Shown here one piece after another: positions 29,390-44,908 of a stretch of 64,000 nucleotides of DNA. Position 1 is the stretch's first letter, and each line of letters starts with the position of its first letter. The stretch is from Nevskiaceae bacterium (GTDB lineage: Bacteria; Patescibacteriota; Microgenomatia; PFEM01), in assembly GCA_035527075.1 (NCBI GenBank), contig DATLBE010000007.1, positions 463 through 64,462 on the forward strand, in the 5' to 3' direction. The notes below the pieces were generated by a model. It had not been told where the DNA came from. It saw nothing but the letters and a program-made list of their open reading frames with translations, and made no database searches. A program made the position numbers and the translations under genes.

Positions 29390-30071
29390 TCTGCTTAAGG
29401 TTTCTGCCTTCTATTTTAGACCGAGAAAAAATCAATTGTAAAGAGTCAAGTTGAAAATTAACTTCTTTAAGGCTTGAAAAAATCACCAAAAGCCCATCAC
29501 TCAACTCAATTTCAATCTGGCGTGGAGAAACAATTTTGGCTGTTTTGGGCATCAACAAGCGAAATTTTAAACTTTTTAAAAGATTAATTGTCCAAACAGC
29601 TTCTTTTTCAATTTTCTCACCAACATTAAGATTAATTGGCTGCTCTACTAAAATCACTGGTAACTCAATTTCATTTGCTTTTTCTAATAAAAAGCCTTCT
29701 TCATCAACAATCCAAAAACCTTCTTCTGGGCTTTTTAGCGCTGCTTGTGGTTCCCGTTTTTTAAGTTCAAAAGAAAGATGGTTGGGCAAACTTTTTTTAA
29801 TTTTGACTTCTTTTAAAAGAGGGTGGCTTGCTTTAATTTGACTCACTAAATCTTTGGTAGGAAAAAAAACAATGTTTTTTCCTATTGTCAAACTCATCAA
29901 CTCCATCCAAATTTCTCCCGGACAAGCGGTTTGGTTGAATCGACAATCAATCTTTTTAACAACTAAAGCGGTTTTTACAAAAACAACCAAACCAACAATT
30001 GAAACAATTAAAATGACAAAAATAGAAATTTTTTTTAAAAGACTTAAAACAGTTTTTTTCTTTTTTCTCAC
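29349..30071 (-). CDS. ftsQ: Cell division protein FtsQ/DivIB (POTRA domain)
   Basis: Poly-Lys N-terminus, a single TM, then a POTRA-like periplasmic domain. Position between murG and ftsA. Confidence 0.55.
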   Translation of the reverse strand: MRKKKKTVLSLLKKISIFVILIVSIVGLVVFVKTALVVKKIDCRFNQTACPGEIWMELMSLTIGKNIVFFPTKDLVSQIKASHPLLKEVKIKKSLPNHLSFELKKREPQAALKSPEEGFWIVDEEGFLLEKANEIELPVILVEQPINLNVGEKIEKEAVWTINLLKSLKFRLLMPKTAKIVSPRQIEIELSDGLLVIFSSLKEVNFQLDSLQLIFSRSKIEGRNLKQIDLRFDKPVVIYE

Positions 30072-31195
30072 TGGGCAGTTTTTTCAACCAAATCAGCAAT
30101 TTTTTGAGCGGCGTTTAGCTTAACTAATTTTTTCGCTTTGGCACCATTTTTTTGATAATTAGTAAGATTTTTCATCATCTCTACAATCACCTTTAAAAGG
30201 CTTCCACTAGACAATTCTTTTTGAGGTAAAATCTTAGCCAAACCTACCCCTTCAACCATTTGAGCGTTTTTCATTTGTTCATTTTGATAAAGCCAAGGCA
30301 AAGGAATCAAGAGAACCGGTTTTCCTAATGCAATAAGTTCGGTAATCGTATTGGCGCCGGCTCGGGAAACCACCAAATCAGCTTTATTTAAAACGGTACC
30401 CATCTCAACGCTGCTTAAATATTTTTTGACATGATAGCGTTTTTTCAACCTTGGCGGTAATTTATCTCTTATTTCTTCAAGCCTTTCAAAATCGCCCAAT
30501 GCATTCAGGTGGCCGCATTGGTGAAAAACATTAACCTTTTCAACCAATTGAGGCAAAACCAGCTGAACAGTTTGATTAATCGTGTGTGAACCTTGGTTAC
30601 CACCAGTAATAAAAACAAGTGGTAAATTCCTCTCAAAATTCAAAACTTGCCAAATTTGCTCATTAATTTCAAAAATCTCTTTTCTAATAGGGTTACCAGT
30701 CAAAATAACTTTATTATCAGGTAATTTTGCGATTGTCTGAGGCCAAGAAACAGCCACTTTTTTAGCAAAAAAGGCATTGATTCTGGTGGCCAAACCAAAA
30801 ACTGTTGTCTGTTCATGAGTCACAACAGGAATCCGCAATAACCAACCAGCTAACACCACGGGGACGCTAACATAACCACCAAAAGACAAAATAATGTCAG
30901 GTTTAATCCGTAAAAGCCAGAAAAAAGATTGAAAAAAACCAACCGGAATTTTTAAAATTGCCGGAATGGTGTAGCGGGTAAAGCGGCGTTGCACTCTGCC
31001 AGCTTTTATCGGGATAAAAGGCAAGTCTTTTTCAGCCATCACCTGAAATTCAACTGAAGGTGTTTTATCACCCTCCATGGCAAATTTTCGGCCAAAAAAG
31101 AAAATCTGCCAACCGCCTCGGTCCAAAAGTTCATCAATCACCGCCAATGCCGGCGTCAAATGCCCACCAGTAACCACAACTTTCTTTTTCTTCAT
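30068..31195 (-). CDS. murG: UDP-GlcNAc:lipid I GlcNAc transferase MurG
   Basis: N-terminal G-loop (VVVTGGHLTPALAV) and C-terminal GT28 domain. Confidence 0.9.
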   Translation of the reverse strand: MKKKKVVVTGGHLTPALAVIDELLDRGGWQIFFFGRKFAMEGDKTPSVEFQVMAEKDLPFIPIKAGRVQRRFTRYTIPAILKIPVGFFQSFFWLLRIKPDIILSFGGYVSVPVVLAGWLLRIPVVTHEQTTVFGLATRINAFFAKKVAVSWPQTIAKLPDNKVILTGNPIRKEIFEINEQIWQVLNFERNLPLVFITGGNQGSHTINQTVQLVLPQLVEKVNVFHQCGHLNALGDFERLEEIRDKLPPRLKKRYHVKKYLSSVEMGTVLNKADLVVSRAGANTITELIALGKPVLLIPLPWLYQNEQMKNAQMVEGVGLAKILPQKELSSGSLLKVIVEMMKNLTNYQKNGAKAKKLVKLNAAQKIADLVEKTAQ

Positions 31196-31281
31196 TTTGT
31201 TTTATCTATTATACATCGCCAGGGTTGTAAGTGGCCAGAAAAATTGTTAATCTATGACTCACTTTGATATAATTCAAACCA

Positions 31282-31512
31282 ATGACAGCTATAGAAAGAA
31301 AAGGAAACCAAAACTCCCCAAGCCCATCAAAAAGAATGACTGAGTCTTGGCAGATGATGGTCGAGAGCGACGAAGTCCAAATTTACATGAAGATGGGTCA
31401 GAAAAGTATAGAAAAATGCAGTCAAGAAGCATATTCCAAAGGCTGCTTCCACACATGCTATTACCTTCTAGCTCTTGAAGATTACTTAAAGTTTATAGGA
31501 GTACTTCAGTGA
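31282..31512 (+). CDS. Small hypothetical protein, possible partner of the downstream toxin-like ORF
   Basis: 76 aa. Its stop overlaps the GTG start of the next ORF by 4 nt (GTGA), which suggests translational coupling. Confidence 0.3.
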   Translation: MTAIERKGNQNSPSPSKRMTESWQMMVESDEVQIYMKMGQKSIEKCSQEAYSKGCFHTCYYLLALEDYLKFIGVLQ

Positions 31513-31853
31513 AGCAACAATACATAGGTGTTATTTTTACCAAACATGTCATCAATCGGCTTTATAATCAGGGCATTAGCCAGTCTGATGCTTGGCAGAC
31601 TTTTCAACATCCAGACAACAGTCTGCCTGGAAAAACGCCGGGTTCGCGAAAATTTTACAAGAACTTTGGTGACAAAAGAATCGAAATCGTGGCTAAAAAA
31701 AATGAAAAAGGCGAGTGGGTGATTCTCACTGGATGGATAAAATATCCGGGTAGTGGTCAACCTTCTGCTGCTTCAGATGAACCTTTTCTCCAAGGGGTTG
31801 TTGGTAAACTTGTAGAAAAAGGTTTAAACAAACTCAAAAAAACTACTTTTTAA
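31509..31853 (+). CDS. DUF4258-like toxin-fold small protein (GTG start)
   Basis: FTKHVINRLYNQGIS...KRIEIVAKKNEKGEWVILTGW matches the DUF4258 pattern (xxxKHAxxRMxxRGIS ... VVV...ITV). Opposite strand to the dcw genes. Confidence 0.4.
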   Translation: MKQQYIGVIFTKHVINRLYNQGISQSDAWQTFQHPDNSLPGKTPGSRKFYKNFGDKRIEIVAKKNEKGEWVILTGWIKYPGSGQPSAASDEPFLQGVVGKLVEKGLNKLKKTTF

Positions 31854-32949
31854 CCACTCTGTGTTTGGAGATGTTAATCATCACACCGGCACCGACTAAG
31901 GCCAAAACCAAAGACGAACCACCATAGGAAATGAAAGGCAAAGGAATGCCGGTTAAAGGGACTAAAGCCACCATAGCGGCGAGATTAATTAAAGCCTGTA
32001 AACCAATCCAAGCAGTGACACCGACAACCAGAAGTTGGCTAAATTCGTCAGGAGATTGTTTGGCAAGTTTAAAACCGCGCCAAATAAAAAGCAAAAAGAC
32101 CAGCAAAACTAAAACCCCACCAATAAAACCGGTTTCTTCGGCAATGACCGCAAAAATCGAATCAGTTGTCACTTCAGGCAAATATTCATATTTTTGTCTT
32201 GACTGGCCAAGCCCCAAACCAAAAAGGCCACCAGAACCTAAAGCAATCAAGACTTGGCGAATATGATAAGAAGCACCAAGTGGGTCATGGGTGGGATTCA
32301 AAAAAGTCAAAATCCGCTGGCGTCTATAAGGCGAAGAAAAAATTAAACCTGCACCTCCAACCAAACCGAGAATACCAATTAGGGCGATTTGCCAAACAGA
32401 CGCACCAGAAACAAAGTAAACCAAAACTCCTATCGCCACCACAATCACCGTCGTCCCCAAATCAGGCTCAAACATAATCAAACCAACCAAAACCGCAATT
32501 AAAACCAAAAAAGGCAAAAACTTTTTCTTATTACTTAAAAAAGCAGCCAAATAAACAATTAAAGCAAATTTGGCAAACTCAGCCGGTTGAAAACTAAAAC
32601 CCCCAAAACCAAGCCAGCGTCGGGCACCTAAAGCTTTTGTTCCTACTCCTGGAATTAAAACCAAAATTAAAAAGATAATGGCTAAAATCATCAGCGGTGC
32701 AGCTAACTTTCTTAAAAAACGATAATTAAAAAAACTGGCCAACCCAAAAGCCAGAAAGCCTAATCCAGCCCATTGAGCCTGAAGTTTAAAATAATAAAAT
32801 TTGTCGCCAAAATCACGGTAAGCTTCAACCACCGAAGCATTACCAACCATAATCACGCCAAAAATGGTCAAGAGAATAACCAGAGTCACCAGAATTAAGT
32901 CAGGTTTATTTGAGGCGTTTTTAAGAGTCAGTTTTAAGTGCTTTGACAT
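31843..32949 (-). CDS. ftsW: SEDS family protein FtsW (lipid II flippase / PG polymerase)
   Basis: SEDS motifs (LPEVTTDSIFAVIAEE, PLTGIPLPFISYGGSS). Dcw position between murD and murG. Confidence 0.9.
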   Translation of the reverse strand: MSKHLKLTLKNASNKPDLILVTLVILLTIFGVIMVGNASVVEAYRDFGDKFYYFKLQAQWAGLGFLAFGLASFFNYRFLRKLAAPLMILAIIFLILVLIPGVGTKALGARRWLGFGGFSFQPAEFAKFALIVYLAAFLSNKKKFLPFLVLIAVLVGLIMFEPDLGTTVIVVAIGVLVYFVSGASVWQIALIGILGLVGGAGLIFSSPYRRQRILTFLNPTHDPLGASYHIRQVLIALGSGGLFGLGLGQSRQKYEYLPEVTTDSIFAVIAEETGFIGGVLVLLVFLLFIWRGFKLAKQSPDEFSQLLVVGVTAWIGLQALINLAAMVALVPLTGIPLPFISYGGSSLVLALVGAGVMINISKHRVVKK

Positions 32950-34279
32950 GAGTTTTAAATTGTTTACCTCTTACTTTGTAATTGGCAAACATGTCAAATG
33001 AGGCGCAAGCTGGAGACAGTAAAACGATATCGCCAGGCTTGGCTTTTTTAAAAGCAGCCTTGACAATCTCCCTCATCCCGCCGGGTCTAAAGATAATCTC
33101 GCCTTTAAAGCCAGCTTTATTAACCGCTTTTTTAATCCGAGTGGCCATTTGGCCAATAAGAATAAGGGTTTTCACTGAGCTTTGGGCAATTTCTCGCCCG
33201 AGATTCGTATAATCAGAGCCTTTTTCAGAACCACCGGCAATTAAGATAATCGGCTTTTCAAAAGCTTTGATAGCTGCCATGGCTGTCTCAGGCGTAGTCG
33301 AGAATGAATCATTGTAAAAACTGACGCCCTTTAAAACTTTGACCTTTTCCAACCGGTGTTCTAAACCAGAAAAAGAAAAGACTGCCTTTTTAATTGAAGC
33401 CAAATCAGCTCCTGTTAAAGCGCTAGCGGTAATCGCTGCACAAACGTTATCCCAATTATGGGCGCCACGAAGCTGAAGTTTTTTTACCGAACCAATAATT
33501 TTTCCATTAAGTATAAAAGTTTCATTCTGAACATAGGCGCCATTGACTTTTTTTTGTCGACTAAAGTAATAAACTTTAGCTTGGGTCAACGAAGCAAAAG
33601 AGGAAGAGATAGGATTATCGCCGTTCAAAACGCTCAAATCACTCCCCTTTTGGTGTCGCAAAATGTTTGACTTCGCCTGAATATATTCTTTTTCATCTTG
33701 ATGATAATCGAGATGTTCAGGAACAATAAACAAAACCACGGCAATGTGAGGGCTTCTGGTTAAATCTTGAAGTTGAAAACTGGAAAGCTCTAATACCACC
33801 CAGCTATCTTTAGTTAATTTTGGCAACAAAGCCAACATTGGCTGACCAATATTGCCAGCTAAGAAAACTTTTTTGCCTGATTTTTTCAGTATCCGGTAAA
33901 TTAAAGTCGCCGTTGTCCCCTTGCCTTTAGTACCAGTCACGCCGATGATTCTGGCAGGACAAAGGTCAAAAAATAATTTGGTGGCGCTTAAAATTACGGC
34001 GCCTTTTTTTTCGGCTTGAAGAATTTCTAGCATCAACCGTCGAAAAGCTGGCGAACGGAAGATAATCTCAAACCCTTCCAATCCCCTACCCAAGTAATTC
34101 TTCTCTAACCTAAATTCAACCCCTTGCTTTTTAAAGTTTTTATAAGCCTCACCCAATTCGCTGGCACTTTTTTGATCAAAAACCGTAATTTTTACCTTTT
34201 TTTTCAAAAGATACTGACTTACATCTTGCCCCTCAATCCCCAACCCCAAAATCGCTATTTTTTTATTGGAAAATTTCAT
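32921..34279 (-). CDS. murD: UDP-N-acetylmuramoylalanine--D-glutamate ligase MurD
   Basis: N-terminal Rossmann (KKIAILGLGIEGQDVSQYL), Mur-ligase P-loop (GVTGTKGKGTT) and dcw context. Confidence 0.9.
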   Translation of the reverse strand: MKFSNKKIAILGLGIEGQDVSQYLLKKKVKITVFDQKSASELGEAYKNFKKQGVEFRLEKNYLGRGLEGFEIIFRSPAFRRLMLEILQAEKKGAVILSATKLFFDLCPARIIGVTGTKGKGTTATLIYRILKKSGKKVFLAGNIGQPMLALLPKLTKDSWVVLELSSFQLQDLTRSPHIAVVLFIVPEHLDYHQDEKEYIQAKSNILRHQKGSDLSVLNGDNPISSSFASLTQAKVYYFSRQKKVNGAYVQNETFILNGKIIGSVKKLQLRGAHNWDNVCAAITASALTGADLASIKKAVFSFSGLEHRLEKVKVLKGVSFYNDSFSTTPETAMAAIKAFEKPIILIAGGSEKGSDYTNLGREIAQSSVKTLILIGQMATRIKKAVNKAGFKGEIIFRPGGMREIVKAAFKKAKPGDIVLLSPACASFDMFANYKVRGKQFKTHVKALKTDS

Positions 34280-36632: not shown

Positions 36633-37892
36633 TTATTCGACTCTCTTGATATCAGCGCCCAGACTTCTTAACCTGCCCTCGATATTTTCATAACCCCGTT
36701 CAATCATCTCAATATTGGCAATTTCACTTTTGCCTTGAGCACATAAGGCAGCCAACACCAAGGCCATGCCGGCGCGAATATCAGGACTTTCCAAATTTTT
36801 ACCTTTTAACTTTGTTGGCCCAGTAACCAAAACCCGATGAGGATCACATAAAGTAATTTTGGCACCCATGGTAATTAATTTATCCACAAAAAACATTCTT
36901 GATTCATACATCCAGTCATGGCAAAGGGTCGTTCCTTCTGCTTGAGTAGCCAAAACAATCAAAGGGCTCATTAAGTCAGTTGGAAACCCTGGCCAAGGCC
37001 GGGTTTGAACTTTCTTGGTTGGTGCCACTAATTTTGAGGGAAAAACTGTCAAAGCACCATCTTTTATTTTGTATTCCACACCCATTCTTTTAAAGTAAAG
37101 AAGAATCATTGGTAAGTCTTTTTCTTTTACGCCAACAATTGATAGCTTGCTTTTAGTGACAGCCCCAATAACAGCAAAAGTGCCAGCATCAATGTAGTCA
37201 GGACCAATTCTGTATTTTGTTCCACGTAAATTCTTTGACCCATAAATTGTAATCCTGTTGGTGCCGGCGCCTTCGATTCTGACGCCCATGTTGGTTAAAA
37301 ACTGAGCTAAATCCTCAACATGAGGTTCACAGGCGGCAGCTTCAATCACCGTTACCCCTGGAATCAAACTAGCCATCATCATTGCGTTTTCAGTGGCGGT
37401 CACCGAAATTTCATCAAGAAAAATATGACCCGGATGAAGTGTTTTAACTTCCGACTCATAATCTTCTTCCCCATTAATTGTTTTTGCCCCTAAAACCTCA
37501 AGAGCATCAAAATGAGTCCCAACCGCCCGGCGACCAATAATACATCCACCAGGGTGTCTAAGCCTAGCCTTACCAAACCGAGCCAACAACGGCCCTAACA
37601 ATAAAATTGAAGCCCTTAATTTTTGAACCAGCTCTGGATTTAAAGAAAATTTGTTTACTCCCTTCGTGTTAATTTTTAATTTATCCGTACCTAAGCCTTC
37701 AATCTCTGCTCCAATGTCTTTAAGAATTTCACCCATCACCAAGACGTCACTAATTTTAGGCACATTTTCCAAAAAACATTCCTGCTGAGTAAGCAAGGTG
37801 GCCGCCATGATAGGTAAAATGGCGTTCTTGTTACCAGAAATTTTAATTTCACCCTTAAGTGTTTTACCACCTTTAATAATAAATTTAGCCAT
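36633..37892 (-). CDS. murA: UDP-N-acetylglucosamine 1-carboxyvinyltransferase MurA
   Basis: KISGNKNAILPIMAA, a catalytic Cys region (RLRHPGGCIIG) and the EPSP-synthase-like fold. Confidence 0.92.
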   Translation of the reverse strand: MAKFIIKGGKTLKGEIKISGNKNAILPIMAATLLTQQECFLENVPKISDVLVMGEILKDIGAEIEGLGTDKLKINTKGVNKFSLNPELVQKLRASILLLGPLLARFGKARLRHPGGCIIGRRAVGTHFDALEVLGAKTINGEEDYESEVKTLHPGHIFLDEISVTATENAMMMASLIPGVTVIEAAACEPHVEDLAQFLTNMGVRIEGAGTNRITIYGSKNLRGTKYRIGPDYIDAGTFAVIGAVTKSKLSIVGVKEKDLPMILLYFKRMGVEYKIKDGALTVFPSKLVAPTKKVQTRPWPGFPTDLMSPLIVLATQAEGTTLCHDWMYESRMFFVDKLITMGAKITLCDPHRVLVTGPTKLKGKNLESPDIRAGMALVLAALCAQGKSEIANIEMIERGYENIEGRLRSLGADIKRVE

Positions 37893-37916: not shown

Positions 37917-38813
37917 TTAAATTTTATCAAATCCAAGCAAATAAATCTCCTTTTCAAGTCTAACGCCAAATTTTTTTTGAACCTTAGTTTTGGCCAGTTT
38001 AATTAATTGAAGAACATCTTTGGCCCGAGCTTGACCCAAATTGACAATAAAATTGGCGTGTTGGGGAGAAATTTGGGCATCACCGATTCGTCTTCCCTTC
38101 AAACCACAGCCTTCAATCAACTTGCCGGCTGATAATGGTTTGGGGTTAATAAAAATGCAACCAGCCGAAAGCTCTTTGGGTTGAATCTCCCGTTTTTTCA
38201 AAATTTTTTTGATTTTTTTTGAGATTTCTTTTCTCACTCCCTTTCCTAATTGCAACTCTACTTCTAAAATAATTTCACTAGTTTTTTTAAAACGGCTTTG
38301 GCGATATTTGAATTGGCAATTTTTCTGATTAAGCCATTTAATTTCACCTTTCTCTGTTAAAACGCGCACCTTCAAAACTCTATCGCCAATATTTTGTTGC
38401 CAGGCTCCGGCATTACCTCGGACGGCTCCGCCTAAAGTCCCGGGAATGCCTGCAACAAACTCTAAGCCAAACAAGCCTACTTTGGCCGTTTCTTCAACTA
38501 ATGTTTTTAGCTTCACCCCACCATCAGCAATGATATTTGAATTTCGAAGCTTGAATTCCGAAGTTTGAATTTTTATCACTAAACCTTTAAAGCCTTGGTC
38601 GCTAATCAAAAGATTTGAGCCTTCGCCTAAAATAAAATAAGGGATTTTTAACCTTCTGGCTAATTTTACGGCTTGAATTATCTTGTCAGTCGTGTTTGCT
38701 TCGTAAAACAAATCAGCCGGGCCGCCAATTTTGAAAGTGGTGTGACCAGCCAGCAAAACATCAGCTTTCACTCCCGGCAATTTCTTCGTTAACTCGGTAT
38801 ATTTTTTAATCAT
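37917..38813 (-). CDS. murB: UDP-N-acetylenolpyruvoylglucosamine reductase MurB
   Basis: FAD-binding domain (TFKIGGPADLF...ILGEGSNLL) and a C-terminal MurB domain. Confidence 0.88.
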   Translation of the reverse strand: MIKKYTELTKKLPGVKADVLLAGHTTFKIGGPADLFYEANTTDKIIQAVKLARRLKIPYFILGEGSNLLISDQGFKGLVIKIQTSEFKLRNSNIIADGGVKLKTLVEETAKVGLFGLEFVAGIPGTLGGAVRGNAGAWQQNIGDRVLKVRVLTEKGEIKWLNQKNCQFKYRQSRFKKTSEIILEVELQLGKGVRKEISKKIKKILKKREIQPKELSAGCIFINPKPLSAGKLIEGCGLKGRRIGDAQISPQHANFIVNLGQARAKDVLQLIKLAKTKVQKKFGVRLEKEIYLLGFDKI

Positions 38814-40212
38814 TTTTTAACTTTTCTATTATCATCTTTGAGATCAAATAGGATTTACCAGCGCCAAAAACTATCACCACATCGCCGCTTTCAGCCTGGC
38901 GAGCAAGACCGTCCGCCAGATCCTCAAAATCTTTGATGTATTTGGCTTTGGCGCCAATCTTTTGAACCAAATCTTCGACTCTAATTTTGCCTGTGTCTTT
39001 TTCTCTGCCAGCATAAATTTTGGTGACAATGACTCTATCTGCCAAATTTAAAGAAGAAGCAAAACCATTTAAAAAAAGATGAAGCCGAGAAAACTGATGG
39101 GGCTCAAAAACCGCCCAAATTCTTGACTGGGGATATTTTTGTTTAGCTGCTTTTAAAGTGGCTGCAACGGCTGTTGGGTGAACAGCATAATCATCAAAAA
39201 CTTTCACTCCCTTAGCCTCTCCAATTAAATCAAAACGTCTGCCCAAACCACCAAATTGACTTAAAACCCGGTTGATTTTTTCTGGTTTAATTTTCAAAAA
39301 AATCGCGCAAGCAATGACGCCCAGCGCATTAGCAACATTATGAATACCAGGAATCTTTAATTGAAACTCCTTTCGGCCAAAATCATTCGTCACCGTAAAT
39401 CGGGTGAACTCAGGCTTGATTTCCTTGACTGTGGCTTGATATTCAGTCACAAAAGGAAAAGCAAAGCTTTTGTTTATTAAGTAACCGATTATTTTTACTT
39501 GATTTTTTATCAACCATGGTTTTAATTCTTGTAAAAGTGTCTGAATTCCTTGACTTTCTTCATTAACAATCAATATTTTCGGCTTTTGAACTTTTCGGAC
39601 AAATTTTTTGAAGGCGTCACAAAATTGGCCAAAATCTTTGAAAAATTCAGGATGGTCCATCTCAATATTGTTAATAATGATGATTGAAGGTGAGTAGGAT
39701 AAAAAGTTGTAGTTAAACTCATCAGCTTCACAAACAAAATATTTTGATTTGCCTGCTCTGACCGTTGCTTGCCATTCGGGAACAATGGCACCGACTTCAA
39801 CAATCGGATCTAACCCGCTTGCTTCTAAAACCAAGCCTGTCAGAGCTGTAGTGGTTGATTTGCCGTGAGTGCCGGCAATAGCAATCACAAACTTGTTTTT
39901 TTGTAAGTACTTAGCCATAAACTCTTGCCAGGTCATCAAAATACCTCGTTTTTTGGCTTCGACAATTTCTGGATGGTCAGGATTAACATCCAAAACAGCA
40001 GGAGTGACAGCTAAAATATCAACGCCTTTAAGATGACTGACGTCATGACCAACTAAAGATTTAATGCCGGCTTTGGCAAGTGACTTCAGATAATAAGTGT
40101 CTTTAGCCAAATCACAACCTGTGACTTGAAAGCCTTGATTTTTGGCCAAAATCGCTACTCCCGCTATTCCACTACCACCTATACCCATAAAATGAACGTG
40201 AGTTTTCTTCAT
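38806..40212 (-). CDS. murC: UDP-N-acetylmuramate--L-alanine ligase MurC
   Basis: MurC N-terminus (VHFMGIGGSGIAGVA) and P-loop (IAGTHGKSTTT). Confidence 0.9.
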   Translation of the reverse strand: MKKTHVHFMGIGGSGIAGVAILAKNQGFQVTGCDLAKDTYYLKSLAKAGIKSLVGHDVSHLKGVDILAVTPAVLDVNPDHPEIVEAKKRGILMTWQEFMAKYLQKNKFVIAIAGTHGKSTTTALTGLVLEASGLDPIVEVGAIVPEWQATVRAGKSKYFVCEADEFNYNFLSYSPSIIIINNIEMDHPEFFKDFGQFCDAFKKFVRKVQKPKILIVNEESQGIQTLLQELKPWLIKNQVKIIGYLINKSFAFPFVTEYQATVKEIKPEFTRFTVTNDFGRKEFQLKIPGIHNVANALGVIACAIFLKIKPEKINRVLSQFGGLGRRFDLIGEAKGVKVFDDYAVHPTAVAATLKAAKQKYPQSRIWAVFEPHQFSRLHLFLNGFASSLNLADRVIVTKIYAGREKDTGKIRVEDLVQKIGAKAKYIKDFEDLADGLARQAESGDVVIVFGAGKSYLISKMIIEKLKND

Positions 40213-41435
40213 TTTTTCTTTTTTAATTTTTCTTTTAAAGCTTTTCTGGCTTCTTTGTGGTCACTCCAAGGATATTCAGTTGTCCCAAAACACATCGATT
40301 GCTCGTGGCCCTTGCCGCAAATGACAACAATGTCGCTTTTTTTGGCTAATTTTTGAATAGCAAACTTGATCGCTTCACTTCGATCTGGTATCCGAAAGAA
40401 ATTTTTACCCTCAACACCACCGGCTTTTTGACAACCTCGAGCTATCTGGTTAATGATTTTATCAACGTCTTCTGTTCTTGGATCTTCTGCTGTTAAAACA
40501 CTCACATCAGCTAACCGACTCGCAATTTTACCCATTATTGGTCGTTTCCGAGCATCTCTTAAACCGGCACAACCAAAAACAGCAATTAGTCTGTGATGTT
40601 TTGACTCTCTGAGGGTTTTTAAGACATTTTTTAAACCATTTGAGGTGTGGGCAAAATCCACAATCACTTGAAAATCTTGGCCTTCGTCTATTTTTTCCAT
40701 TCTGCCTTTGACTCCCTTAAAAGCAGTTATTGTCCTTCTAATTTTTTCGGCCGGAATTTCCAATGATGAGGTGGCGGCGATCGCCGCTAAACAATTATAT
40801 TGGTTGTATTCTCCTGGAAGAGAGGTTTTAAATTGAAATTTTTTAGGGTTAAAATCAGCTGTGTTTTTAATTCCGTAGGTGACGAGTTGCGTTTGTTTAT
40901 TTTTTTTGGTTTTGGTTAAAAGAGTTTGGTAAGATCGGTCGTCTCGGTTCAAAACAGCGATTTTTACATTTTCAAAAAGCCTGGCTTTCGCCTGAAGATA
41001 ATTTTGATAAGTGCCATGATAATCAAGATGCTCATGGGTAACATTGGTAATCACTCCCATCAAAAAATTGATGCCAAAAACCCGGTGCTGGTCTAAACCA
41101 TGGGAAGTCACTTCCAAAACAAGATATTCATAATCTTGGTCAGCGATTTTTTTTAAAAAGGCTTGTAATTTCCAAGGATGAGGAGAGGTAACATGGAGGC
41201 CGGCCGAAACTGTCGAGATCAAAGCCACTTTTTTTTCAACCTGAAGCAAAATTTGGTAAATCAAGGTGGCGGTCGTAGTTTTACCGTCAGTTCCAGTGAC
41301 GCCGATAATTTTTAAATGGCGTCCGGGGTAACGATAAGTAAAGGCGGCTAAAAAAGCCACCGGCAGGTGGAAGAAAGAATTGACCATCCAGTTAGGAATC
41401 AAATGACGGATTTTCGACCACCAGTTTTTAAACAT
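40209..41435 (-). CDS. murE: UDP-MurNAc-L-Ala-D-Glu--diamino acid ligase MurE (compact)
   Basis: P-loop IIGVTGTDGKTTT and a Mur ligase central and C-terminal domains. Short N-terminal domain. Confidence 0.8.
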   Translation of the reverse strand: MFKNWWSKIRHLIPNWMVNSFFHLPVAFLAAFTYRYPGRHLKIIGVTGTDGKTTTATLIYQILLQVEKKVALISTVSAGLHVTSPHPWKLQAFLKKIADQDYEYLVLEVTSHGLDQHRVFGINFLMGVITNVTHEHLDYHGTYQNYLQAKARLFENVKIAVLNRDDRSYQTLLTKTKKNKQTQLVTYGIKNTADFNPKKFQFKTSLPGEYNQYNCLAAIAATSSLEIPAEKIRRTITAFKGVKGRMEKIDEGQDFQVIVDFAHTSNGLKNVLKTLRESKHHRLIAVFGCAGLRDARKRPIMGKIASRLADVSVLTAEDPRTEDVDKIINQIARGCQKAGGVEGKNFFRIPDRSEAIKFAIQKLAKKSDIVVICGKGHEQSMCFGTTEYPWSDHKEARKALKEKLKKKK

Positions 41436-41471: not shown

Positions 41472-43178
41472 CTATCCAGGTTGGATACCGTAATAGGTGA
41501 AAAGTTCTTTGGCAATGTCAAACCACAAGGGCGCGGCTGTTTCTGATCCCCACGGTGAGGAAGTTGGTTCCCGAAGAGTAACCAGCATGATAAATTTCGG
41601 TTCGTCAGCTGGCGCAAAACCAATAAAAGAAGCAATGGTTTTTTCTTCATCATAATGGCCAGCCACCGGAATTTGAGCTGTCCCGGTTTTGCCTGCAATT
41701 CGAAAGCCTTTGGGTTTTGCCCATTTGGCCTCACCATTCTCAACCGCATTAACCATGATTTCTGTCATTAAGCGCGCCGTCGCCGGATTAATGACTTGCC
41801 TCTCAAACTGAGGTTGAACCCCTATCACTTCTTGATCATAAACCACTTTTTGAACCACATAAGGTTTCATTAAACGGCCTTGGTTAGCAATTGCCCCAAC
41901 CGCTTTCACCATTTGAATCGGGGTGATTGCAACTCCTTGACCAAAAGCGGCTGTGGCTAAATCAATTAATCCCCACTCATTTGCTGGTCGAAGCGGTGGA
42001 GATGTCTCGTCTTCAAGATCAATACCAGCTGGTTGACCTAAACCAAATTTTTTAAGGTAGGCGACCATTTTTTCAATTCCCAACTTTTCAGCCACAAAAA
42101 TCATGCCGATATTATCAGATTTTTGAATCACCTCAACCATTGTTAATTGTGGATGATACTCGTCATTCCAAGTTCGAATAGTGTAGTCAGCAATTCGCCT
42201 GGGACCTGAGCATTGGTCACAGCGCGTCTCTGGTTCCACCACTCCTTCATTTAAAGCCGCCGCCATCACTAAAACTTTAAAAGTCGAGCCGGGCTCATAA
42301 GAAGAAGCCACAACCGGGTTGGGATAAAATTCTTTGTCAAAAGCAAAATACCTGGCTGGGTCATAACCAGGTAAAGAAACGGTGCCTAAAATTGCGCCCG
42401 TGCCCGGTTCGGCCACAACCACTAGACCACTAGCCGCACCATAGCGTTTAAGACTCCGACGAAGCTCTTCCTCAATAATAAATTGAACAGTTCGATCAAT
42501 CGTGGTCACCAAACTGCGACCGTCTTTACCCCCTTCCCCTTTAACCTCGCCCACCAAAATTGGTTTCCCTGAAGCGTCTTTTTCCCGGCGAAGCACACCT
42601 GATCTGCCTTTCAATTCAAGTTCATAGTAACCCTCAAGACCAAAATAGCCCTTGTCTCGACCGTTAATATCCGAACCTACAAAACCAAGTAAATGGGCGG
42701 CCCCCGACCCTTCGGGGTAACTTCTTTTTGGTTCTTCCTCAAAACCGAGACCTTCAATTTGCAAATTTTCCAAAATTTTTTTCGTTTCCCGAGAAAGACG
42801 ATGTTTAAGGGGCACCCAAACCAAATCTTGACGTTTTAACCGGGCTTCAAGCATTTGCTCGGTTTCCAAAAGAAGCTCCTTTTTCGAAACCAAAAAAGGA
42901 GCAATTTGGGCGGCAATTTCCTCAGGCTTGTCTTTTAAATCAGGCAAGGAGGCAAAAGCCAAAAAAGCTTCTTCGTTGGTCACCAAAGGAAAACCATCGC
43001 GAGCCAAAATTTTGCCTCTTCGGGCCGGAATTTCAAACGAAACCCAATGCTGACCTTCAGCGGCAGCTGATAACTCAGGAGAATTTAAAATTTGCCAATA
43101 AAACAATCGGCCAGCCACCAAAAAGCCACTGATTAGAAAAAAACCAAACAAAAGATTGACTCTCGTGTTTAGACTCAC
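41472..43178 (-). CDS. ftsI: Penicillin-binding protein (class B transpeptidase, FtsI/PBP2-like)
   Basis: N-terminal TM, dimerisation domain, and transpeptidase motifs STFK, SDN (KSDNIGM) and KTGT. Confidence 0.9.
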   Translation of the reverse strand: MSLNTRVNLLFGFFLISGFLVAGRLFYWQILNSPELSAAAEGQHWVSFEIPARRGKILARDGFPLVTNEEAFLAFASLPDLKDKPEEIAAQIAPFLVSKKELLLETEQMLEARLKRQDLVWVPLKHRLSRETKKILENLQIEGLGFEEEPKRSYPEGSGAAHLLGFVGSDINGRDKGYFGLEGYYELELKGRSGVLRREKDASGKPILVGEVKGEGGKDGRSLVTTIDRTVQFIIEEELRRSLKRYGAASGLVVVAEPGTGAILGTVSLPGYDPARYFAFDKEFYPNPVVASSYEPGSTFKVLVMAAALNEGVVEPETRCDQCSGPRRIADYTIRTWNDEYHPQLTMVEVIQKSDNIGMIFVAEKLGIEKMVAYLKKFGLGQPAGIDLEDETSPPLRPANEWGLIDLATAAFGQGVAITPIQMVKAVGAIANQGRLMKPYVVQKVVYDQEVIGVQPQFERQVINPATARLMTEIMVNAVENGEAKWAKPKGFRIAGKTGTAQIPVAGHYDEEKTIASFIGFAPADEPKFIMLVTLREPTSSPWGSETAAPLWFDIAKELFTYYGIQPG

Positions 43179-43183
43179 GGTGA

Positions 43184-43495
43184 TTATTTTAGAGCCACGG
43201 GAACCTGTGGAGTAAGATGTAAAACTCGAGTTGTTCTTAAAAAGCCTCCATTTTCCGCTTCCAAAGAAATTTTACTCAAAGAAGAAAGTTTACTTGTTTG
43301 TTCAATTAAAGCTCGATTTTCCTCTTCCAAACGGGCTGTTTCTTGCTCTAACTGACGAATCTCCTCACCAGTGTTAGCTAATTGATGAGAAATTGCCAGT
43401 TGAGTTAAGGCTAAAACCAAAACAAAACTGACAATAATATAAATCAATTTTCGCACCCTAGAAATGTCTGATAATTTTGTTTTATTTTTCATCAA
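43184..43495 (-). CDS. ftsL: FtsL/DivIC-like septation protein (TM plus coiled coil)
   Basis: 103 aa with a single TM followed by a leucine-zipper-like coiled coil. Position between rsmH and ftsI. Confidence 0.5.
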   Translation of the reverse strand: MMKNKTKLSDISRVRKLIYIIVSFVLVLALTQLAISHQLANTGEEIRQLEQETARLEEENRALIEQTSKLSSLSKISLEAENGGFLRTTRVLHLTPQVPVALK

Positions 43496-44372
43496 TTTTC
43501 TCTCCTGCTCTTAACTTAGCACTGCGGCTGCGAGGATTTTTCCCAACTTCTTCTTGTGTTGGCCTGACCGGTTTTTTGGTCAAAATTCGCAGCTCGCCGG
43601 CCTCGTCTTTTTTTCGAAAAAATTGTTTGACAATTCTGTCCTCGCCTGAATGAAAACTAATCACTACCAATCTGCCGCCCAACTTTAACAAGTCTAAAGC
43701 CTGAGGCAAAGCATTTTTTAAATTGTTCAGCTCATCATTAACCGCTATCCGCAAAGCCTGAAAGCAACGCGTGGCCGGATGCAGACGGATAAACCCTCTT
43801 TTTGATCTCACCTTAGCAATAATCTCGGCCAGCTCGTTGCTGGCTTTAATTGGCTTTAATCGACGGGCGCGGCAAATAGCCTCAGCAATGCGCCGAGAAT
43901 AGTGCTCCTGACCCAATTTAGAAAAAAGCTCATCCAACTCTCCTTTATTTAAACCATTCACCAAATCTGCCGCGGTCACCGAAAGGCTAGGATCCATTCT
44001 CATGTCCAAAGGGCCTTCAAGTTTAAAAGAAAACCCTCGTTTGGGAGTCTCCAGCTGATAAGTAGAAACCCCAAGGTCAAAAAGAATCCCAGCGACGCCG
44101 GTATATTTGTTTTTCTCGGCAATTTTTTTTAAATGAACAAAATTTCCCTGGACAAGCCGCCAGGAAGTAGGGCAGGCAGTGGGTAAACACCTCCCGGCGG
44201 CCTTGATTGCCTCAGGGTCACAATCGATACCTAAAATTTTTCCACCTAAGCTTAAAATCTGCTGCGCGTGTCCTCCGCCACCAATGGTGGCGTCAATGTA
44301 TTTCTCCCCTCGAATAACTTTCAAATAATTAATAATTTCTTTTAAAAGTACTGGCTTATGAAACCTTGCCAT
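43482..44372 (-). CDS. rsmH: 16S rRNA (cytosine1402-N4)-methyltransferase RsmH (MraW)
   Basis: HKPVLLKEIINYL start, SAM motif DATIGGGGHA and dcw position. Confidence 0.92.
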   Translation of the reverse strand: MARFHKPVLLKEIINYLKVIRGEKYIDATIGGGGHAQQILSLGGKILGIDCDPEAIKAAGRCLPTACPTSWRLVQGNFVHLKKIAEKNKYTGVAGILFDLGVSTYQLETPKRGFSFKLEGPLDMRMDPSLSVTAADLVNGLNKGELDELFSKLGQEHYSRRIAEAICRARRLKPIKASNELAEIIAKVRSKRGFIRLHPATRCFQALRIAVNDELNNLKNALPQALDLLKLGGRLVVISFHSGEDRIVKQFFRKKDEAGELRILTKKPVRPTQEEVGKNPRSRSAKLRAGEKIDEK

Positions 44373-44503: not shown

Positions 44504-44908
44504 TTAAATATTTTCTTTGGCAATTTTATTAGAGTAAGTCTCCCAAACTGTCTTATTCCAAATCTCGAAATGATCGCCCGCGCCAATCAGGGTCAATTTA
44601 TCCGTAACACCAGCATATTTCATCATTGCCTCAGGAACTACAAATCTTCCTTGTGAGTCTAAAGTCACTCTTTCGGCATTTGTACAAAGTTTTCTGCGAA
44701 GCATTCGTCCTTGCCCATCGGAAATTGGTCGGGAAAGATCAGCGGCGGTAACCTGCTCCCATTTTTCTTCTTCGAAACCAAAAATACAATCTTCCATTCC
44801 AACAGATAAAATAAGTTGATTGCCTTTTATTTCTCTTCTCAATTTGCTGGGTAAGGCTAGCCTGTTTTTGTCAATTAGGGTTGGTTGGTAAGTTCCCAAA
44901 AGCATCAA
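44504..44908 (-). CDS. mraZ: Transcriptional regulator MraZ
   Basis: Tandem MraZ/SpoVT-AbrB-like halves (DKNRLALP ... DSQGRFVVP). The likely true start is the ATG at 44905. Confidence 0.85.
   Translation of the reverse strand: MMLLGTYQPTLIDKNRLALPSKLRREIKGNQLILSVGMEDCIFGFEEEKWEQVTAADLSRPISDGQGRMLRRKLCTNAERVTLDSQGRFVVPEAMMKYAGVTDKLTLIGAGDHFEIWNKTVWETYSNKIAKENI

Follow-up and report, generated by a model that had tools for sequence, protein, structure and literature searches.

Closest described systems

Within the colicin-like BECR branch, the pre-alpha helix bears a catalytic histidine, and the characterized members are mostly tRNases. RelE, ParE, HigB, YoeB, and MqsR toxins, CdiA-CT, and the colicin D and E5 tRNases are conflict or addiction toxins accompanied by immunity or antitoxin genes, with patchy and mobile distributions. 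DUF4258 (PF14076), which overlaps Ntox49 and belongs to the colicin-like BECR / RelE-ParE branch, typically provides the toxin of antitoxin/toxin bicistrons or of MqsA-type fusions, and BrnT (PF04365; PDB 3u97) is followed by its antitoxin BrnA, in toxin/antitoxin order (Gerdes, 2025; PMC11980606). Here we describe two small open reading frames (ORFs), ORF1 and ORF2, in a 64,000-nucleotide stretch of contig DATLBE010000007.1 (assembly GCA_035527075.1), which as a whole we call the window; they lie between murG and ftsW in the division and cell wall (dcw) gene cluster. ORF2 is like DUF4258, the sole Pfam family it matches, in having a similar size, the motif T/x-H-A-x-x-R-x-x-x-R-x-I in its pre-alpha helix, and the topology pre-alpha + alpha + beta1-4. 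Unlike DUF4258, members of the ORF2 family stand alone as single-copy genes, are syntenic throughout their lineage, carry a C-terminal membrane-type helix, and stay below the gathering score of the Pfam family; unlike the RelE/ParE-type toxins and the CdiA-CT and colicin tRNases, ORF2 is vertically inherited, at fixed chromosomal sites, and under housekeeping-like selection. We think, with moderate confidence, that ORF2 is a domesticated, solitary, membrane-tethered BECR-fold RNase-like protein and that ORF1 is a young accessory gene.

The locus and the ORF2 family

Both ORFs fall within a gap of 647 bp between murG and ftsW. An earlier note on this DNA, made from the sequence alone, had described the gap with its two plus-strand ORFs (as 650 bp), the GTGA stop/start overlap between them, and the convergence of ORF2 with ftsW, whose stop it was said to overlap by about 10 nt; all three descriptions agree with what we find, the last overlap being 11 nt. 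The features of the locus are as follows, in window coordinates.

30068..31195, minus strand: murG (Pfam Glyco_transf_28 and Glyco_tran_28_C, E 4e-26 and 3e-32), divergent from ORF1/ORF2
31208..31237, minus strand: murG promoter-like site, TGGCCA-18-TATAAT, its -10 box 12 nt before the murG ATG (consensus scan)
31244..31273, plus strand: ORF1/ORF2 promoter-like site, TTGTTA-18-TATAAT with a TG extension, ending 8 nt before the ORF1 ATG (consensus scan)
31282..31512, plus strand: ORF1, ATG start, 76 amino acids (aa)
31497..31501, plus strand: AGGAG, a Shine-Dalgarno-like site for ORF2 inside the ORF1 3' end, with 7 nt between it and the GTG (read from the sequence)
31509..31853, plus strand: ORF2, GTG start, 114 aa
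31509-31512, plus strand: GTGA, the overlap of the ORF1 TGA stop with the ORF2 GTG start
31530..31742, plus strand: predicted BECR/RelE-like core domain of ORF2, aa 8-78
31785..31847, plus strand: predicted cationic amphipathic C-terminal helix of ORF2, aa 93-113, PFLQGVVGKLVEKGLNKLKK
31843..31853, both strands: convergent overlap of the 3' ends of ORF2 and ftsW, 11 nt
31843..32949, minus strand: ftsW (Pfam FTSW_RODA_SPOVE, E 7e-107), the final gene in the upstream dcw half

Searching 5.8 billion proteins, we obtained 39 ORF2 homologs of 100-122 aa and 51-100% identity, all unannotated and from metagenome-assembled genomes (MAGs) of Patescibacteria type; 17 residues are invariant in their alignment, and a conserved N-terminus, MK-x-R-Y, backs the GTG start of ORF2. 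When 1.84 billion cluster representatives were searched exhaustively with a profile, just 222 matched at E <= 1e-3, nearly all of them 80-135 aa long and each standing for a cluster at 50% identity. By these searches the family is small and lineage-restricted. ORF2 is labelled "hypothetical protein" in every source and has no precomputed Pfam domain. NCBIfam and PADLOC gave no match for it, a family-profile search of PDB sequences gave nothing at E <= 10, and a literature search found nothing on the family in Patescibacteria. With 39 close homologs, some 222 cluster representatives, and a ratio of nonsynonymous to synonymous substitution rates (dN/dS) of 0.11-0.27, ORF2 is a real gene and not a chance ORF; the corresponding case for ORF1 is made below.

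The only Pfam family that ORF2 matches is DUF4258 (E 0.016, 15.9 bits, profile positions 1-67 of 71), and each of the 39 close homologs matches it as well, weakly (E <= 1; best E 3.1e-5). By profile score ORF2 is a consistent but sub-threshold outlier of DUF4258, for which formal Pfam membership fails. Its core comprises beta0, a pre-alpha helix, an alpha helix, and a four-stranded sheet, and the pre-alpha helix carries the motif T11-x-H13-A/V-x-x-R17-x-x-x-(R/Q)21-x-I23. The predicted model shows the marks of the BECR / RelE-ParE fold, namely the pre-alpha and alpha helices, the four-stranded antiparallel sheet, and likeness to solved members. Across 129 divergent representatives, T11, H13, R17, R21, K/R51, and W76 are each retained in 117-123 (T11 in 121, H13 in 117, R17 in 118, R21 in 119), and the motif T-x-H-A-x-x-R-x-x-x-R runs through the whole family; H-A-x-x-R-x-x-x-R-x-I with a conserved histidine is what we take to be the N-terminal helix motif of DUF4258. 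The ORF2 of the window has H13 and R17 but Q21 (31569-31571). Taken together, the model and these residues support a divergent DUF4258 / colicin-like BECR (RelE-superfamily) fold for ORF2. The DUF4258 toxin-like pattern remarked on in the earlier note thus holds in the predicted fold and in the weak match of all 39 homologs, and fails at the Pfam gathering score.

BrnT, as another possible home for ORF2, was rejected: identity is 12-13%, no PF04365 match appears even at E <= 10, and there is no BrnA downstream, ORF2 being followed instead by ftsW or by variable genes. BrnT, unlike ORF2, has no membrane tail. Among the more elaborate relatives, two proteins (P0095, 526 aa; P0121, 516 aa) have four or five tandem ORF2-type domains followed by a C-terminal transmembrane (TM) helix, and in a third (P0167, 372 aa) a single ORF2-type domain precedes TM segments and a further domain at the C-terminus.

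Genomic position and inheritance

The comparison covered 134 related loci. Protein look-ups supplied 12 of them, a set with one genome for each GTDB species 40, and metagenome contigs 80, and a few were added for ORF1. An ORF2 homolog is present in 132; counts here and below are of loci, not of independent genomes. ORF2 occurs in these settings.

dcw context, 52 loci: murG (minus) and ORF2 (plus), with ftsW (minus) beyond where the contig reaches; 24 loci show both flanks
gltX context (Woesebacteria-type, 37-54% identity), 46 loci: c2 (minus), gltX (plus), c3 (plus), c6 (plus), and ORF2 (plus), often followed by an HlyD/ABC/FtsX-type transporter
str operon context (58-59% identity), 4 loci: rpoC, rpsL, rpsG (and a zinc-finger gene), then ORF2 (plus), then fusA and tuf
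Other contexts, a few loci: ORF2 adjoins murB (L015, L077) or a PD-(D/E)XK nuclease

Orthologs in the dcw context share 51-80% identity, and their start lies a median of 47 nt from the start of murG (at most 150 nt in 38/46). The earlier note had taken the pair for an addiction-type module of two genes embedded in the cluster as an insert. This idea is not supported. For ORF2, the outcome that the note itself had named as its refutation is seen: orthologs stand at this dcw position, on the opposite strand, in 52 loci, and all but a handful of these lack ORF1. In the str operon ORF2 again lies on the opposite strand, divergent from the operon's downstream half (fusA). A neighbor-joining tree of 102 unique ORF2 proteins shows the contexts to be essentially monophyletic. 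ORF2 has relocated at least twice in evolution.

Across the dcw-context loci, the identities of ORF2 and of murG to the window proteins rise and fall together (r 0.65; means 59% vs 57.5%). By the Nei-Gojobori method ORF2 has a dN/dS of 0.11-0.27, on a par with murG (0.11-0.17) and below ftsQ (0.34-0.40); that of ORF1 is about 0.4-0.5. A scan of species representatives found essentially one ORF2 match per genome, and no homolog turned up in IMG/VR viral contigs (viral-contig scan) or in PLSDB plasmids and INPHARED phages (tblastn). The patchy, mobile, or multi-copy distribution of type II toxin-antitoxin (TA) systems was accordingly not seen for ORF2. Because its contexts are fixed and monophyletic, its divergence and dN/dS are like those of murG, it is single-copy, and mobile elements hold no homologs, ORF2 is, on comparative grounds, a resident and vertically inherited gene of a Patescibacteria lineage of Microgenomatia type, with rare relocations, and not a mobile addiction module.

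Some features of the other contexts deserve mention. In the gltX context (L022-L045 and L096-L128; e.g. L034:3093-9354), ORF2 ends a tight co-directional array whose gaps are often 1-15 nt; c3 is a protein of about 315 aa with one TM segment and c6 one of about 110 aa, neither with a Pfam match. For a colicin-like (tRNase-type) fold, the link to gltX, which encodes glutamyl-tRNA synthetase, is suggestive. The c6 gene, directly upstream of ORF2 in this clade and absent from the window, was weighed as an antitoxin but fell into no family and did not resemble ORF1; it could encode a partner protein of ORF2 there. The str-context loci (L011, L061, L062, and L065; e.g. L061:526-8253) repeat the geometry seen at murG/ftsW and have a 98-aa treble-clef zinc-finger gene (PF23477) between rpsG and ORF2. 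Small ORFs downstream of ORF2 were considered as a conserved partner, namely minus-strand genes of 98-124 aa (L005, L007, L011, L012, L017, and L023) and a 103-aa gene (L003), and were rejected for want of any mutual clustering, save for the treble-clef zinc-finger protein confined to the str context.

Promoters and transcription

The two promoter-like sites stand back to back between murG and ORF1, and we infer them at the level of consensus matches. The block TATTATACATCGC, which holds the murG -10 box, is conserved in L007, L129, L131, and L133. In relatives without ORF1, the ORF2 ATG follows a TGATATAAT/TGATAAAAT box at a distance of 8-12 nt, and in the str operon too the TGATAAAAT box precedes the ORF2 ATG, the extended -10 thus traveling with ORF2. 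Since only 8 nt part the promoter of the window from the ORF1 ATG, the ORF1/ORF2 mRNA would be leaderless or have a very short leader; in the lineage ORF2 would form a monocistron, leaderless or with a short leader, and here it would be part of a bicistron. On the same consensus evidence, mraZ...ftsW and murG-ftsQ-ftsA-ftsZ would be separate transcription units in this lineage. Scanning for terminators gave none between ORF2 and ftsW, and Rfam, searched over 30800-32300 at E <= 1, gave only chance eukaryotic matches and no known non-coding RNA.

An effect of convergent transcription on ftsW had also been suggested. The distance from ORF2 to ftsW ranges in relatives from -19 to about 2800 nt, which makes a conserved antisense effect unlikely; the 11-nt overlap is specific to this genome, and since it is not conserved, antisense control of ftsW would not be a selected feature.

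ORF1 and the toxin-antitoxin alternative

ORF1, which lies between the promoter and ORF2, is predicted to be all-helical, and is fast-evolving and lineage-restricted. Outside the window it was seen only in L008, as a 77-aa homolog upstream of ORF2 with 38% identity and the same 4-nt overlap; in L132, as a partial homolog visible only by alignment; and in L133/L134, as a homolog (P0192) with 45% identity. A single-sequence search found only ORF1 itself, and a profile search added only P0191 and P0192. Since these three or four homologs (30-45% identity) hold frame and length, the 4-nt overlap recurs in two loci, and dN/dS is about 0.4-0.5, ORF1 too is a real gene by comparative evidence.

One could take ORF1 and ORF2 for a working type II TA pair in the window and its nearest relatives, in which ORF2 would be an RNase toxin of the DUF4258 class and ORF1 its fast-evolving proteic antitoxin, and we regard this as unlikely. 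ORF2 has the BECR toxin fold, and the antitoxin-then-toxin order with a 4-nt stop/start overlap is that of DUF4258 modules (Gerdes, 2025; PMC11980606); ORF1 is small and evolves rapidly (38-45% identity vs 73-80% for ORF2), and in L133/L134 it stands without an adjoining ORF2, like orphan antitoxins. Yet no cognate antitoxin co-occurs with ORF2 across its homologs: ORF1 is absent from relatives just as near as those that have it, namely L007 (whose ORF2 is 80% identical), L129, L130, L131, and L049, and from all more distant loci, a tblastn census found no ORF1 match in 128/132 ORF2-bearing loci other than L008, and no other small neighbor of ORF2 is conserved across contexts. A toxin that depended on ORF1 could not persist in this way, ORF2 being found without it in more than 120 loci. 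Nor did ORF1 prove recognizable as an antitoxin: Pfam, NCBIfam, and PADLOC gave it no family and only noise (Cap3, E 0.03), a fold search gave no meaningful match, and none of the known antitoxin families or DNA-binding folds (ribbon-helix-helix, helix-turn-helix, AbrB, Phd/YefM, MqsA) was found. Purifying selection on ORF2 equal to that on murG, the missing signs of mobility, and a conserved membrane-type tail atypical of type II toxins likewise speak against the pair.

ORF1 and ORF2 each occur without the other, given that loci lacking ORF1 are common and that L133/L134 have ORF1 without an adjoining ORF2. ORF1 looks like a recent acquisition between promoter and ORF2, because relatives without it have the same box before the ORF2 ATG, whereas in the window this box precedes ORF1 and ORF2 has AGGAG. 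The L133 and L134 loci (L133:1030-1327, L134:641-1019) are the closest relatives by murG (85-88% identity) and share the promoter together with the ORF1 homolog; after ORF1 they have unrelated sequence and a minus-strand gene fragment, with no ORF2 within the 70-150 nt to the contig end. That both contigs end there suggests a strain-variable junction.

The C-terminal tail of ORF2

Beyond a variable, low-confidence linker (aa 79-92), ORF2 ends in a helix with a hydrophobic moment (muH) of 0.71 and a net charge of +4 (z 3.3 vs shuffles). The tails of all 39 close homologs average a muH of 0.73 and a net charge of +3.7, and the membrane-targeting helix of Escherichia coli FtsA scores 0.62 on the same measure. 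Among 129 representatives of the wider family, 128 have a tail of at least 11 residues (median 38); 123 tails are net positive, 92 have muH >= 0.6, and 9 are TM-like. The tail typically finishes in a Trp/Phe/Leu/Lys-rich segment, and true TM helices stand in for the tail in the multi-domain relatives P0095, P0121, and P0167. A high moment, a cationic face, and the retention of this character in homologs are the marks of an amphipathic membrane-targeting helix, and the tail has all three; from them we infer a conserved architecture of a BECR domain with a putative membrane anchor. The protein has no signal peptide, which would put the domain on the cytoplasmic side. The amphipathic membrane-targeting segment of RNase E, the N-terminal TM helix of RNase Y, and the amphipathic targeting helices of FtsA and MinD are membrane tethers. 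RNase E and RNase Y resemble ORF2 by analogy, in joining a nuclease-type domain to a short amphipathic or TM anchor, the role of ORF2 being a prediction; RNase E, RNase Y, FtsA, and MinD differ from it in that there is no homology and the catalytic folds are unrelated.

The tail also bears on a second alternative, to which we give a small chance: that ORF2 is a toxin that restrains itself or is activated conditionally, either a fused single-gene TA system or a stress or phage-defense effector, with the C-terminal helix folding back as a cis inhibitor or keeping the RNase at the membrane until a trigger frees it. TA fusions exist in the superfamily, including 17 DUF4258-MqsA proteins with the toxin N-terminal (Gerdes, 2025; PMC11980606). 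The conserved His/Arg motif, which suggests retained activity, the lack of a separate antitoxin in most genomes, and the flexible linker that parts tail from core would all fit. The AlphaFold2 (AF2) model, though, gives the tail a predicted local distance difference test (pLDDT) score of only about 50-58 and no confident docking on the core, and the tail behaves like a generic Trp/Phe/Leu/Lys amphipathic or TM anchor of only about 20 residues with little sequence conservation, and hence more likely lipid-binding than a specific protein interface. There is, besides, no PADLOC match, and the neighbors are murG, ftsW, gltX, and fusA rather than those of a defense island.

That ORF2 might have lost its nuclease function and be a membrane-associated adaptor for envelope or division proteins, using the RelE-like fold as a scaffold, would explain its fixation beside murG and ftsW in 52 loci and would suit the proximity of murB in L015 and L077, a family muH comparable to that of FtsA, and the lack of the near-invariant Arg21 in the window protein, but we think it improbable, since sister clades hold ORF2 by gltX or in the str operon (rpsG/fusA) and not by division genes, since the family-wide residues (T-x-H-A-x-x-R-x-x-x-R, K51, W76) are those of the DUF4258/colicin-like active-site region and make no new surface, and since variable genes lie between ORF2 and ftsW, so that there is no tight operonic link.

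Proposed role of ORF2

We return to the reading of ORF2 as a domesticated, membrane-tethered RNase-like protein. In this proposal the N-terminal 80 residues would form a DUF4258 / colicin-like BECR RNase fold that keeps the His/Arg motif of the family, and the C-terminal 20 or so residues a cationic amphipathic helix, most likely a membrane tether, with the protein on the cytoplasmic face. ORF2 would have a compact extended -10 promoter to itself, back to back with the promoter of murG, which would leave the dcw cluster of the lineage split into two transcription units at ftsW/murG. Its activity would most likely be a specific, non-lethal endoribonuclease activity or RNA binding at the membrane, on tRNA or mRNA; RNase catalysis, substrate, and membrane binding are all predictions. 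ORF2 would then be a toxin fold domesticated to a resident cellular role, and ORF1, presumably co-transcribed with it and gained in a few close relatives, may modulate ORF2, although the family as a whole does without it.

Several observations weigh against this reading. To our knowledge, all characterized relatives of the fold are conflict toxins. ORF2 does not reach the DUF4258 gathering score of 25 bits, and Foldseek E-values are weak (best 0.023). The window protein itself has Gln in place of the near-invariant Arg21, which is Arg in 119/129 representatives and in more than 90% of close homologs. Both relocations placed ORF2 on the opposite strand within an essential operon, which can be read as the trace of a selfish past. 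Peptide patterns served to find the loci, several of which duplicate the same contig. Finally, DUF4258 is a toxin family of 6K members without demonstrated activity, and the ORF1-ORF2 order with its 4-nt overlap is the antitoxin/toxin order reported for DUF4258 modules (Gerdes, 2025; PMC11980606). As to Q21, attenuated activity of the window protein is possible; the substitution is uncorrelated with ORF1, since L008 and L132 carry Arg.

A more far-reaching claim, that an entire class of the ultra-small Patescibacteria has domesticated the colicin/RelE-type fold as an antitoxin-free, membrane-anchored housekeeping RNase whose recurrent opposite-strand placement in essential operons is selected, strikes us as rather doubtful. 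If it were true, the RNase might process tRNA or mRNA or regulate its host essential operons, and placement at operon breaks (ftsW|murG; rpsG|fusA) could couple its expression, or a bidirectional promoter, to division or translation genes. Neither the fold nor the DUF4258 superfamily is new; the novelty lies in an antitoxin-free, single-copy form, unannotated so far, with a membrane-type tail and clade-specific sites in essential operons. We know of no BECR/DUF4258 domain outside conflict systems. If the reading of ORF2 as a domesticated RNase-like protein is right, it would offer a clean case of toxin-fold domestication in the genome-reduced Patescibacteria and a tractable, non-lethal DUF4258 member for biochemistry. 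The comparison also flags an unannotated conserved family and cautions that a small RelE-like gene behind a small ORF is not always an addiction module.

The surrounding dcw cluster

On the minus strand the cluster runs in the order MraZ-like, rsmH, ftsL-like, ftsI, Mur ligases, murA, mraY, murD, and ftsW; beyond ftsW come ORF2/ORF1 on the plus strand and then murG, ftsQ-like, ftsA, and ftsZ (assigned by Pfam and inspection), with murG heading the downstream half, murG-ftsQ-ftsA-ftsZ. Genes placed by coordinates in the upstream half are these.

44504-44908, minus strand: MraZ-like ORF (inspection only)
43482-44372, minus strand: rsmH
41472-43178, minus strand: ftsI, with a small ftsL-like ORF between rsmH and ftsI
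32921-34279, minus strand: murD

The NCBI label of the source contig proteins, "Nevskiaceae bacterium", is probably wrong, judging by protein similarity. Many related MAGs are labelled "uncultured Gammaproteobacteria" or even "Bathyarchaeia", and the dcw genes and ORF2 are closest to MAGs of Shapirobacteria, Woesebacteria, Microgenomates, and Patescibacteria. The cluster of the window also has murA (EPSP_synthase family) at 36633-37892, among the Mur-ligase genes, and two ORFs without annotation here, of 298 aa (37917-38813) and 408 aa (40209-41435).

Relatives carry variable cargo in the slot between murG and ftsW. On the ftsW side of ORF2, three loci (L008:658-1302, L131:1016-1660, and L132:558-827) have a conserved 214-aa protein of 64-72% identity that is absent from the window, another (L001:6381-7715) has a 444-aa MATCAP-family (PF08014) protein, and further relatives have assorted small orphan ORFs; murG and ORF2 are separated by a NUDIX gene in L003 (L003:5610-6035). 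The same locus, and L004 also, has an apparent murD-ftsW fusion of 815 aa (L003:6925-9372), in which MurD-like_N, Mur_ligase_M, and Mur_ligase_C domains are joined to FTSW_RODA_SPOVE.

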